Below are positions 27,938-63,012 of a stretch of DNA of 64,000 bases, piece after piece. Every line of letters starts with the position of its first letter. Position 1 is the first letter of the stretch. Where the stretch lies: assembly GCA_963718575.1 (NCBI GenBank), contig OY970358.1:98723-162722 (forward strand). The letters run 5' to 3'. Both the position numbers and the translations under genes were made by a program. Below the pieces are notes generated by a model. The model was given only the letters and a program-made list of their open reading frames with translations, did no database searches and had not been told where the DNA came from. Source of the DNA: an uncultured bacterium (GTDB lineage Bacteria > Patescibacteriota > Minisyncoccia > UBA6257 > 2-01-FULL-56-20).

Positions 27938-28751
27938 TTATTTCCGTACGGTCAATAATCGCACCGGCAGATATGCCAGGAACGATATCGTCGCGATATA
28001 GAACGTGACCGGCCAGCTGCCCGTCGCCGCCAGGAATATCCCGAGCCATGTGTACGCGAGCGCGAGCGCGATTGAGGTCGCCACGGCGCCAAGCGGGTTG
28101 TGCACGATGCGCGTCGCCGTGGCGGCCGGGCCGACAAGCAGGGTGAAGATCAAAAGGACGCCGACCACCTCCACCGACATTGAGACTGCAATTGCGACGA
28201 GGATCAAGAAAATGATCCCCAGCGCACGCAACCGGCACGCCGCGCGCTTCCGCGACCTCCGGATCTACGGAGCTGAAGAGAAGCGGGCGAAAGATCGCCG
28301 CCAGCGCCACGATCGTCCCGATGCCGAATATCAGCGTGATAAGGACATCCGTATGACTGATCCCCAAAATCGTTCCGAACAAAATACTGTATGCCTGTTC
28401 CGCATAACCGTTATAGAGAGAGATGAAGAGCGCGCCGAATCCGAGCGAAAGCGTCATCACGATGCCGATATTGATATCCTCCTCGCGCAACTCTTTGCCA
28501 AAGACGCCGATCCCCGCGCCGGCGGCGATCGTGAATGCCAGCATCCCGAAGATCGGATCGATGCCGACGAGCAGCGCCGCAGCCGCGCCCGCAAAGCCGA
28601 TGTGCGAGAGCGCGTGGCCGGCGAAGGTGAGCCCCCTCGTGATCAAAAAATATCCAACGCATCCGCCGACGATCGCAACGATCGATCCGGCAAGGAATGC
28701 ATTTTGGATGAAAGAGTATTGGAAGATTGAGAACATTGGATTATGCGACAA
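27938..28751 (-). pseudogene. Second ABC-3 metal transporter permease paralog, disrupted by a frameshift near 28230
   Basis: The N-terminal 180 aa of ORF 27660..28751 and the 97-aa ORF 27938..28231 together form a ZnuB-like protein, with a frame change after EVAEARGVP. Confidence 0.6.
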
Positions 28752-28770
28752 ACGCCGCGAACAGTGTGCG

Positions 28771-29553
28771 CTACAGTTCCGCGCCGACCACGAAAACGTG
28801 CCCGCCGCTCCGTATCACTTCCACTTTCGTGTCGTAGAGCTTGGAAAGCGTTGCGCTCGTCACGATCTCATCCGGCGCGCCCATCGCACTATGTCCATGC
28901 GCCATGTAAAGCACGCGGTTCGCCGCCGGGAGGAGCGGATTGATATCGTGCGAAACGAGCATGATCGTCACGTCGCGATGCTTGGAGATCTTCGTGAGCA
29001 ACGAGATGATCTCCTGCGCATGGTTGATGTCAAGATTCGAAAGCGGCTCGTCGAGCAATAATATTTTCGGATCGGTGATGAGCGCCTGCGCAATGAGCAA
29101 TCGCTGCTGCTCGCCGCCCGAAAGATATCCCACCGCCGCATCGGCGAACTGGTATGCATCCACTTCTTTGAGCACCGCATCGATCCTTTCATCACGCGTG
29201 CGGCTGCCAAAACCGATCCCCCATTTATTTCCATCCAATCCGAAGCCCACCACGTCGCGCGCGCGCAGTGCCAGATCCGTCTCCAGCACGCGATGCTGCG
29301 GCGCGTAGCCGATCGCGCCGTCGCCGCGATGGGGAATACCGCCAAGCACGCGGATCTCGCCCTCCGTCGGTTTCAATAAGCCGAGGAGTAATTTGAAAAG
29401 GGTTGTTTTTCCCGCGCCGTTCGGTCCCAGGATGGCAACAAATTCCCCTTTCTGAACGTCAAAACTGACCGCGTTGAAGATCGTTCGGCCACCGAGTTCC
29501 ACCGTGACTCCGTCGAGTGAAATAACGCTGTTGTTATCCATTGCTTTTTGCAA
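28771..29553 (-). CDS. znuC: Metal ABC transporter ATP-binding protein
   Basis: Walker A (GPNGAGKTTL), ABC signature (LSGGEQQRL) and Walker B (ILLLDEP). Confidence 0.85.
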   Translation of the reverse strand: MQKAMDNNSVISLDGVTVELGGRTIFNAVSFDVQKGEFVAILGPNGAGKTTLFKLLLGLLKPTEGEIRVLGGIPHRGDGAIGYAPQHRVLETDLALRARDVVGFGLDGNKWGIGFGSRTRDERIDAVLKEVDAYQFADAAVGYLSGGEQQRLLIAQALITDPKILLLDEPLSNLDINHAQEIISLLTKISKHRDVTIMLVSHDINPLLPAANRVLYMAHGHSAMGAPDEIVTSATLSKLYDTKVEVIRSGGHVFVVGAEL

Positions 29554-60205: not shown

Positions 60206-60317
60206 AATGCTCCTTCTGGACGTAAATGTCCTTGATTCAGTTGAGTTCCGACCATAAAAAAATCGACCGGATACTGCGGATAATTATACATATATTCCAA
60301 TAAAAGTCAATAGCATC

Positions 60318-63012
60318 CTATCCCCCTGTCGCCTCGTGCTTCGGGCCGCCGCTCGCCATATTTTTCTGATGCTCTTCGGTGTTTAAGAGGCCGCAGTGTT
60401 TCCACTTTTTGCCGCTGCCGCACGGGCATGGATCGTTGCGACCGATCTTTGCGCCGGGCCCCATCTCGCTCGCGGGAGTGGCGGGGATATTCAAGCCGAA
60501 ACTTGCACCCGCGGCCGCTCCCCCGCCCTGCTGAGTCGCCGCCGCCAGCTTGAACATATTATTAAAAATCCAGCCGTTGAAATTTCCCCAGAAGCTTTTG
60601 AAGAGCCGGCTCGCCTCCTGGCGATATTCGACGAGCGGATCGTGCTGGGCATACGCGCGGAGGCCGACGGATTCCTGCAACGCCTCGAGGTCTTCGAGGT
60701 TTGTCATCCAGAGCATGTCGAGAATGCCGATGATCTGATTCTTTGCGAGCGAGTTCTCGGCAACGCCGGCGCTCTTCTCATGAATGGCGGCAGCAAAGTC
60801 TTCTTCGGCTTGGAGGGCGTCCGCGGCGGCGGAGTCCGCAACGATCACGCCTTCCTTGAACGCCTTGCGTGCCTCTTCGATTGCCGCTTCCCGCTCGCGA
60901 CCGAACGCCGCAAAACCCGGCGCGAAGGCCGCATTAAAGTGCGCGAGCGCCGCATCCGCGATCACGCTTGTAAGCGATTCCTTATCCGGTAATTCCAGGA
61001 ATTCCGTGCGCCGCTTATAGACCGCGCTCCGCTGGCGGTTCAGGACGTCGTCGTACTCAAGGAGATGCTTGCGCATATCGAAATTGGCGCCTTCCACTTT
61101 TTCCTGCGCCTGCTCGACCGCCTTCGTGACCATGCCGAATTCGATCGGCTCGTTCTCCGGCAGGTCGAACCGCTCCATCATCCCTTTGATACGATCGCCG
61201 CCGAAGATGCGGAGTAGATCGTCGTCGAGCGAAAGGAAGAATTGCGATGAGCCCGGATCGCCTTGGCGCCCGGCGCGGCCGCGGAGCTGGTTGTCGATGC
61301 GCCGCGCTTCGTGCCGATCCGTGCCGATCACGTGTAAGCCGCCAAGCCCGCGCACCTTTTCCGCCTCGGCCGCGTCCGGCGGATTGCCGCCAAGCAAGAT
61401 GTCCACGCCGCGCCCGGCGACGTTCGTCGCCACGGTGACGGCGCCCGAATGCCCCGCCTGTGCGATGATCGCGCCTTCGCGTTCGTTGTTCTTTGCATTC
61501 AACACCTCGTGCCGGATCCCCGCCTGCGAGAGCGCCGCACTGATCAGCTCGTTCTTCGCGATCGAGGTCGTGCCAAGCAACACCGGCTGGCCTTTTTTCT
61601 GCCGCTCTTTGCACATCCGCCGCGATCGCGTTCAGCTTGGCGTTGAAATTCTTATAAATAAGATCGTTCAGGTCTTTGCGGGCCAAGCCGCGGTTCGGCG
61701 GAATGCTTTCCACCTCCAGCTTGTACACTTTAAAGAATTCCTCGGCCGACGTCTGCGCCGTTCCCGTCATGCCCGCGATCTTCTTGTACATGCGGAAATA
61801 GTTCTGAATGGAAACCTTCGCGTAGGTCCGGGACTCCTGCTGGACGTTCACGCCCTCCTTGGCCTCGATCGCCTGGTGCAGTCCCGCCTGATAGCGCCGG
61901 CCGACGAGCAATCGCCCGGTGAACTCGTCTACTATATATACCTGTCCTTCCTTCACCACATAGTCCTTATCGCGTGCGAAGAGCGCCTTCGCCTTGATGC
62001 TTTCCTCCATATAATGGACCATGCGGATGTTCTCCGGTGCATAGATGTTCTGCACACCGATCATCTTCTCCACCTTTTCCACGCCGGCATCCGTGATCGT
62101 GATCGTCCGCTTCTTCTCGTCCACTTCATAATCCGTGTCCTTTTCCAAGTTCGCCGCGATTCGCGCGAACGCCTTATAGAAATCGCTCGATTGGGCGTCC
62201 GGCGCCGCGATGATGAGCGGCGTCCGGGCCTCGTCTATCAAAATGCTGTCCACCTCGTCGATGATCGCAAAGTTATGGCCGTGCTGGACGCGGTCTTCGA
62301 TGCGATAGACAAGGTTATCGCGGAGATAATCGAAGCCGAATTCGTGGTTCGTGCCGTAGGTGATGTCCGCGCGATATGCTTCCTGGCGCGACACGGGACG
62401 CAAGAATTCCTGTTGCACCAAAAAACTTCCGGTGGTCTCGACTTTTTTCTCTTCAGCGGCCTCGTCAGCCTTCGGAATCTCAAACTCCGGATCATAGACG
62501 AACGCAGCGCCAGGGATAATCGATCCGACGGTGAGTCCGAGCAAGCGATAGATCTTTCCCATCCACACCGCGTCGCGGCGGGAAAGATATTCGTTGACGG
62601 TGACGACGTGCACGCCCTCACCGGCGAGCGCATTCAGGTATGCCGGCGCGACCCCCGCAAGCGTCTTTCCTTCTCCGGTCATCATCTCGGCGACCGCGCC
62701 GCTGTGCAGCACGAGTCCGCCGAGCAACTGGACGTCGAACGGGCGCTGGTTGAGCGTGCGCTTCGCCGCCTCGCGCACGAGCGCGAAGGCCTCCACAGCC
62801 ACTTCGTCCAGTATTTCCGGGAGCTGGCCAGCCTTTACCCGCTCACGAAGCGCCAGGCTTTTTTCGGTCAATTCGCCATCGGAAAGCGCCGCCATGGCAG
62901 GCTCCAAAGCGTTGATTTCTTTTACTTTTTCCTCGAGCGACGCAAGCGACCGCTTCTGGAACATCTTTTTTAGTCCTTCGAGCATACCAACGATTATATT
63001 TGATTTTGGCAA
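60318..63012 (-). CDS. secA: Preprotein translocase subunit SecA (one apparent frameshift near 61610)
   Basis: The N-terminal 560 aa (MTGEGKTL, DEVDSILIDEARTPLII) are in one frame, and the C-terminal 430 aa (GQPVLLGTTSI..., zinc finger CPCGSGKKWKHC) in another. Confidence 0.85.

Follow-up and report, generated by a model that had tools for sequence, protein, structure and literature searches.

Why do so many genes in this stretch of DNA, essential secA among them, run across more than one reading frame? To address this question we compared the whole stretch of 64,000 bases (the window), which is part of a peat-soil Patescibacteria (Paceibacterota-like) chromosome, with independent metagenome contigs 98.8–100% identical to it. 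Tiled along the window, these contigs cover 62,824 of its 64,000 bases. A preliminary description had counted at least 14 frameshifted genes and had attributed the breaks to homopolymer indels in error-prone reads. The frame breaks are indeed present in the window sequence where it had placed them. With a probability of nearly nine in ten, we believe them to be non-biological consensus errors of one assembly, arising where strains differ.

Forty-nine indels and fifteen genes

The window differs from the tiled contigs by 49 indel events and 236 single-nucleotide polymorphisms (SNPs). The indels are small, span positions 28228 to 61612 and involve a single base in 44 cases; 40 are insertions and nine are deletions (p = 9e-6). 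Every one of the 49 is absent from a near-identical independent contig covering the site, the reference contigs (98.8–100% identical to the window) coming from at least eight other samples or assemblies. The sites at 45796, 45852, 55556 and 61612 are each contradicted by two to three independent contigs. Forty-six of the events lie within the coding sequence of 15 genes, and not one of these has a length divisible by three. Across the covered genes between 32.9 and 57.2 kb, the ORFs of about 12 related species align to the window in two to four frames.

When the 49 indels are taken out, all 15 genes regain full-length ORFs which, despite the 236 SNPs, contain no internal stops, a single TAG excepted. 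The independent contigs encode an intact SecA of 888 aa, a DEAD-box helicase of 502 aa and a Zwf–Gnd fusion of 822 aa; the Pfam domain order of the intact SecA and Zwf–Gnd is normal, and the ORFs of relatives align end to end. The earlier judgements that the corrected products are canonical, and that the breaks reflect artefact rather than pseudogenisation, are thus sustained. Exact look-ups found no record in other assemblies of the frameshifted N-terminal fragment of SecA or of the truncated Zwf–Gnd product. This fits frameshifts unique to the window assembly, as negative evidence only; exact look-ups also returned no record of the window's PGI protein or MacB ATPase.

How is each gene broken? 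The genes concerned lie on the reverse strand unless the forward strand is named. The second copy of ZnuB, an ABC-3 permease of 265 aa when intact (27938–28736), carries an extra G at 28228, in the context CAC[G]CAA, where there is no base run; contig L013 lacks this base and encodes the 265 aa. An S24/LexA-like peptidase of 221 aa (30823–31487) lacks one base at 31458. The PAP2 phosphatase of 211 aa (31597–32234, forward strand) has an extra C at both 31801 and 31838 and is intact in L001/L013. In an ORF of 87 aa (32257–32519) one G is missing at 32504, so that GGG becomes GG. The DEAD-box helicase (32547–34058) contains seven single-base indels, at 33188, 33369, 33413, 33611, 33737, 33839 and 33905, together with 47 SNPs that are mainly third-position and synonymous. 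At least four shifts had been proposed for this gene, and the trace of its motif I break proved correct, at 33905, to within 1–3 nt. DsbB (189 aa; 36374–36944, forward strand) has an isolated extra C at 36730, with no SNP in the gene.

Further along, an ORF of 153 aa (45723–46181) has an extra T at 45796 and lacks a G at 45852, for a net shift of zero; contigs L012 and L016 concur against the window. The MacB-type permease, with MacB_PCD and FtsX domains (46200–47443), carries two extra Gs, at 46357 and 46649, and an in-frame TAG at codon 11 (47411–47413); in L016 it forms one open frame of 404+ aa. Positions 47415–48069 fall outside the near-identical contigs and were compared with related species, against which the MacB ATPase stays in one frame throughout. 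The MacA/HlyD adaptor, 614 aa when intact (48187–50042), holds 12 indel events, all but one of them insertions, in the interval 49035–49972. A second ORF of 153 aa (50063–50525; 50059–50525 in the preliminary description) has events at 50202, 50330 and 50351, and an ORF of 141 aa (50535–50960) has two, at 50581 and 50633. An ECF-type sigma factor of 225 aa when intact (50975–51666) is interrupted by nine insertion events within 51000–51650. A second sigma gene, at 35208–35789, is intact.

In the remaining three genes a single extra base suffices. PEBP (150 aa; 51691–52144) has an extra T at 52094. The Zwf–Gnd fusion (54749–57218) has an extra C at 55556, absent from L004, L006 and L007; relatives encode it as one ORF of 818–823 aa. 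What had been called gnd is the C-terminal half of this conserved fusion. The break had been traced to an A-run, but the true site is about 10 nt away: repairing the A-run yields ...PEPVDDDPK..., where the actual protein has ...PEPVTMIQK.... Finally, a lone extra C at 61612 breaks SecA (60318–62985) into two ORFs, about 642 and about 432 aa long. Contig L005, 99.97% identical over 7.5 kb, lacks the extra base, as does L004.

Essential secA is therefore frameshifted as claimed, and gene calls based on ORFs alone are truncated or split between 28 and 63 kb. Most of the genes originally listed are broken, and the total is 15; the break in the short HlyD gene, also on that list, is shared with other assemblies (see below). 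The list was also incomplete, as it did not name the S24/LexA-like peptidase or the ORFs of 87 and 141 aa.

Base runs and polymorphic patches

Do the indels arise from errors in the length of base runs? Generic homopolymer-length errors in error-prone reads, spread along the whole contig, would agree with the prevalence of single-base events, with the shortening of the GGG run at 32504 and with the homopolymer indels for which long-read assemblies are known (PMC9262707, PMC12313526). But none of the 49 events, the 44 single-base ones included, falls at a run of four or more bases, despite the 519 such runs in 27938–64000, and the event at 32504 is the only one at a run of three. That region also holds 197 runs of five or more bases, all of which agree with the independent contigs wherever these cover them. 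Of the 35 single-base insertions only four lengthen a run, where random placement would give 16.0 ± 2.9; when indel positions are tabulated against homopolymers, the events avoid base runs. Repair at an A-run, as we have seen for gnd, gives the wrong peptide.

Nor are the errors contig-wide. A control stretch at 484–28227 (no strand), comprising a type I R-M and serine-recombinase island with its flanking genes, matches L179, L176, L177 and L013 at 99.99–100%, with no gaps over 27.4 kb. Upstream of 27938 there are no indels in 27,454 bp, against 49 in 35,370 bp (binomial p = 7e-13); between 40 and 44 kb there are again none, and between 52.1 and 61.6 kb there is one only. Neither the homopolymer mechanism nor generally error-prone reads withstand these figures, and we consider this explanation most unlikely. 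Scanned for RNAs, the window gave no tRNA, and with Rfam only a LOOT RNA, unrelated to the frameshifts.

If the indels avoid base runs, what do they follow? Indels lie at a median of 10 nt from the closest SNP, where random placement would give about 1000 nt, and 33 of the 49 have a SNP no more than 15 nt away, where 3.5 would be expected. The polymorphism is concentrated in patches at 30.9–34.0, 44.3–47.4 and 49.0–52.1 kb (the last is patch D), plus a few isolated sites. Of 76 SNPs assigned to codon positions, 51 are at the third; 51 are synonymous and 25 non-synonymous, and the third-position bias is found likewise in patch D. Since this bias persists at all distances from the indels, the SNPs appear to be mostly real, and look like genuine strain divergence. 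The possibility that SNPs adjoining indels are themselves errors was considered and rejected, the bias weakening only slightly within 3 nt (8/17). We also asked whether insertions arise when the consensus keeps both alleles of a nearby polymorphic site, the inserted base being the alternative one; a synonymous candidate was available for 19 of 35 insertions, the null being 14.9 ± 2.9 (P = 0.11).

The indels of the window are thus unique to its assembly, are mostly insertions and co-localize with genuine SNPs, and their removal restores every gene. From this pattern we infer two things: a metagenome assembly of long-read type as the source, and read pile-ups from mixed strains as the immediate cause. 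Where the strain is identical to strains assembled elsewhere, the sequence is clean, every long base run included. In the polymorphic patches of the population, consensus calling or polishing would leave spurious bases behind, mostly as single-base insertions outside base runs. Frameshift errors are a recognized property of long-read metagenome assemblies, especially those from soil (PMC13087279, PMC9262707, PMC12313526).

Real damage and apparent damage

Might the window strain truly carry these frameshifts, its genes being in decay? Within the patches no reference contig represents an identical strain, and the window's own SNP alleles there are carried by none of the independent contigs. Eight corrected window-allele proteins were looked up in a collection of 15 billion proteins and had no exact match; the exact strain with intact genes is therefore not directly sighted. 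Some real damage does exist in the population, as the in-frame TAG in macB and the frameshift in the short HlyD gene show.

This last case deserves separate treatment. In the short HlyD/YknX-like adaptor (39583–40234, reverse strand), one additional G at about 39991 changes CCGGTGG on the coding strand to CCGGGTGG. The DNA at the frameshift is identical in L001/L013, L002 and L003, which represent three samples, and in at least 12 related species the locus is a single ORF of about 210–220 aa. Because three other samples share it, we judge from the sequences that this frameshift is genuine and at population level, not an assembly error; to class the break as a sequencing error was mistaken, as it is common to other assemblies. 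It was not counted among the 49 indels. Sharing of the lesion by descent is found here alone, and for none of the 49. It is the only frameshift found in this work that should be treated as biology.

For the 49 indels the evidence points the other way. In the broken genes, SNPs fall preferentially at third positions and tend to be synonymous, and nonsense accounts for one SNP in 236. Because of that bias the alleles presumably evolved as working genes, which is incompatible with seven to twelve frameshifts per gene; as many as 12 frameshifts per gene occur without matching neutral substitutions. Strains 99.97% identical have an intact copy of essential secA, which in the window is broken. Natural indel variation is generally held to be deletion-biased and filtered to in-frame lengths. 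The excess of insertions, and the lack of in-frame indels in coding sequence, is the opposite pattern and counts for artefact.

The signature recurs in another assembly, where different essential genes are hit. In L004, a further long contig from this population, murB has 24 insertions within about 570 bp at the contig end, and secA has seven indels. The window is clean in the covered part of murB, and in secA has only its own one-base insertion. Taken together, these observations make genuine pseudogenisation very unlikely. That the indels are real in this one strain, in diverged or recently imported tracts bearing dozens of single-base insertions, secA included, is extremely unlikely. If it were true, there would be, inside a Patescibacteria population of free-living size, a lineage with a mostly-insertion mutational process acting on such tracts, or with damage tolerated via recoding.

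The meaning of consensus errors confined to strain-polymorphic patches is practical, not biological. Left as they stand, they would cause secA, the DEAD-box helicase, the MacAB system, the sigma factor and Zwf–Gnd to be scored wrongly, either as absent or as pseudogenes, biasing inferences of completeness, of metabolism and of ‘genome decay’ for a Patescibacteria genome. Because these errors track strain polymorphism and stay clear of base runs, they would escape a homopolymer-aware polisher. They call for re-polishing that takes strains into account, or for correction of the frameshifts with relatives as a guide.

Comparison with known systems

How does the window compare with systems in which frames are known to be broken? 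Programmed +1 or −1 ribosomal frameshifting occurs in prfB, dnaX and IS elements. The window resembles these in that its ORFs continue in another frame, and beyond the existence of frame changes nothing favours programmed frameshifting or other recoding. Unlike programmed sites, those in the window are not conserved in orthologues: in the covered genes, the ORFs of sister strains and of about 12 related species run without interruption. They are also multiple and irregular, with up to 12 shifts per gene in both directions, and belong to no known frameshifted family. Viewed by eye, the contexts of the 49 sites revealed no shared sequence or methylation-like motif. The probability of recoding is close to nil.

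Reductive and host-restricted genomes, like the window, have many frameshifted genes, and Patescibacteria are a lineage with small genomes. Unlike genes in reductive decay, those of the window show purifying selection, almost no nonsense and mostly insertions, and they are intact in near-identical strains. Only the frameshift in the short HlyD gene resembles a real pseudogene mutation of such genomes.

The closest likeness is to errors of long-read assembly, in which single-base indels split canonical genes, are unique to one assembly and can be repaired via close relatives. Frameshifts and truncated ORFs of this kind are detected by the IDEEL test and repaired by proovframe, Homopolish and Kastor, and are more frequent in soil metagenomes (PMC13087279, PMC9262707, 10.1101/2021.08.23.457338, PMC12007338). 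Even here the likeness is partial. The textbook long-read error is an error in the length of a base run, spread by coverage; the events of the window avoid base runs, are insertions in 82% of cases and are confined to strain-polymorphic patches.

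Frame breaks in the window and their repair

Where do the reading frames break, and can they be mended? Open reading frames (ORFs) are long and unbroken to about 27.9 kb and are fragmented and overlapping beyond that point, where Pfam scans of the fragments find single proteins divided among frames. Contigs of other samples and assemblers were found by exact-protein look-ups with intact window proteins as queries: JGI 3300041431, 3300018047, 3300017948, 3300040759 and 3300077760, three MEGAHIT-named (k141) ENA assemblies and two Logan assemblies. Scanning metagenomes with the MacB fragment brought in another near-identical contig, together with roughly a dozen syntenic loci (~78% nucleotide identity). 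The near-identical contigs are 98.8–100% identical to the window and jointly account for 62,824 of the 64,000 bases.

The nearest genome representatives of this bacterium (Patescibacteria, Paceibacterota/Minisyncoccia-like) are peat and soil MAGs, with a GH130 protein identity of only 84–86%. Two tandem genes of this mannoside phosphorylase family lie at 42335–45500 on the minus strand (641 and ~411 aa); homologues, at 47–86% identity, are widespread among Patescibacteria MAGs.

Compared site by site with the tiled contigs, the window differs by 236 SNPs and 49 indel events. Every indel lies at or beyond position 28228, and 44 are of a single base; 40 are bases extra in the window and 9 are bases missing from it. 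Genes contain 46 of the 49, spread over 15 genes. All 15 products are intact in the independent contigs (DEAD-box helicase, 502 aa; PAP2, 211; DsbB, 189; ZnuB-2, 265; MacA, 614; sigma factor, 225; PEBP, 150), deleting the inserted and restoring the missing bases yields full-length ORFs in 15 of 15, and orthologous ORFs of related species independently give the same frame switches in the genes covered (32.9–57.2 kb). The frameshifts in at least 14 genes claimed in the preliminary description are therefore present, and somewhat more extensive than supposed. Its list of frameshifted genes stands, save that it omitted an S24/LexA-like peptidase and ORFs of 87 and 141 aa, and that the short HlyD it included is not among the 15.

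Breaks in individual genes

The essential secA is divided between an ORF at 61060–63024, with SecA_DEAD and PP_bind domains, and one at 60321–61631, with P-loop_SecA, SecA_SW and SEC-C (Pfam). In the independent contig L005, SecA is a protein of 888 aa, and over 7.5 kb one SNP and a C inserted at 61612 of the window separate the two; a strain at 99.97% identity thus has secA intact while that of the window is broken. Exact look-ups found no record elsewhere of the frameshifted SecA or Zwf–Gnd products.

What was first read as gnd makes up the C-terminal half of a larger protein, a fusion of glucose-6-phosphate dehydrogenase and 6-phosphogluconate dehydrogenase (Zwf–Gnd; 54749–57218, minus strand; ~822 aa; G6PD_N, G6PD_C, NAD_binding_2, 6PGD), conserved at related Patescibacteria loci as a single ORF of 818–823 aa. 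In the window, one ORF joins G6PD_N and G6PD_C to the opening 43 positions of the NAD-binding domain of 6PGD, and the remaining 6PGD lies in a second frame. Three independent contigs place the break at one extra base at 55556. It had been traced to a run of A; dropping an A from CCAAAAAGAG regains the frame but yields ...PEPVDDDPK..., whereas the true peptide is ...PEPVTMIQKEGIQG....

The MacB_PCD and FtsX domains of the MacB permease also lie in separate frames (Pfam). Codon 11 of this gene is an in-frame TAG (47411–47413, minus strand), at a site that reads TGG in a near-identical contig, 3 bases from its end, and TAY in related species. The TAG could be a real nonsense change or a substitution error, or could be bypassed by restart at GTG 47404.

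The short HlyD/YknX-like adaptor (39583–40234, minus strand), which has a 499-aa HlyD gene on one side and an MFS transporter gene on the other, is one ORF of ~210–220 aa in at least 12 related species. In the window it has a +1-nt frameshift, an extra G at ~39991 (GG to GGG on the coding strand). Contigs of three other samples are identical there, so that all four population assemblies covering the site, the window's included, have this G and the break is no error of the window. The frameshift is a genuine mutation, and the gene is probably a recent real pseudogene.

Artefact or decay

Could the other frameshifts record real decay? In comparison with the independent contig L001, 51 of the 76 SNPs alongside indels fall at third codon positions, and 51 are synonymous versus 25 non-synonymous. 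The same bias holds in the 49–52 kb patch and at every distance from the indels, and 1 of 236 SNPs creates a stop. Since the SNPs are overwhelmingly third-position and synonymous, the sequences indicate that purifying selection acted on the window alleles of the broken genes as they evolved, as cannot have been the case for a helicase with 7 frameshifts or an adaptor with 12. Natural bacterial indels are generally deletion-biased, and survivors in genes are mostly in-frame. Here insertions prevail over deletions (40:9, p = 9e-6), no indel in coding sequence has a length divisible by three, and events are not depleted there.

Like damage, to other genes but again in SNP-dense stretches (positions 1–800 and 1830–4500), occurs in L004, a contig of JGI 3300077760 (Ga0645786_4112). 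In its murB, with which the contig opens, 24 insertions fall within ~570 bp, and its secA, called as six fragments, has 5 insertions and 2 deletions. Against this, the window's murB is clean over the covered part and its secA has only its own insertion at 61612. Two other loci of the same sample (L176 and L179) are 99.995–100% identical to the window. Biology would not be expected to break different essential genes in each assembly.

Within the patches, the SNP alleles of the window occur in none of the independent contigs compared, and exact look-ups of eight corrected window-allele proteins found no match in the protein collection. What argues against real decay in precisely this strain is therefore selection, the indel spectrum and the comparison across assemblies, and not the sighting of this strain with intact genes. 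We conclude that the frameshifts, the short HlyD one apart, are almost certainly an assembly artefact, as first proposed, rather than pseudogenisation, and no real biological feature.

Distribution and likely cause of the errors

If the frameshifts are artefacts, do they arise at homopolymers, as had been supposed? The region offers 519 runs of at least four bases and 197 of at least five. None of the 49 events falls at any run of at least four, and a single one falls at a run of three. Insertions of a single base that extend a run number 4 of 35, versus 16.0 ± 2.9 by random placement, which speaks against this mechanism.

Nor do the errors extend over the whole contig. The 27,454 bp before 27938 are free of them (p = 7e-13), as is the stretch at 40–44 kb, and 52.1–61.6 kb has one; they concentrate in three SNP-dense patches, at 30.9–34.0 kb (11 events, 71 SNPs), 44.3–47.4 kb (5 events, 27 SNPs) and 49.0–52.1 kb (~30 events, ~120 SNPs). 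An indel lies a median of 10 nt from its nearest SNP, versus ~1000 nt for random placement, and for 33 of the 49 a SNP is at most 15 nt away (3.5 expected).

The first 24 kb, free of indels, resembles a mobile island and is 100% identical across samples. Its part at 1707–17866, at 99.99–100% identity to contigs of four other samples and with no indels, holds type I restriction-modification genes hsdR/S/M (1707–7946; GC 0.42–0.44), two large serine recombinases (7943–9292 and 11551–12975), DUF5655, DUF2779 and a MerR–helicase fusion. A full-length match to the LOOT RNA model (10459–10579, plus strand; Rfam 54.9 bits versus a gathering score of 46.4) overlaps the DUF5655 gene start at 10484.

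Of the original interpretation, then, the artefact is upheld, and the homopolymer cause and uniform spread are not. Consensus building or polishing may instead have failed at mixed-strain reads, or where the allele of the window strain had low coverage. One specific route would be a consensus that keeps both alleles of a polymorphic site next to each other; 19 of 35 insertions have a synonymous candidate for this, versus 14.9 ± 2.9 under the null (P = 0.11). Failed consensus or polishing would be typical of long-read-type metagenome assembly, for which frameshift errors are documented, in soil especially (PMC13087279, PMC9262707, PMC12313526).
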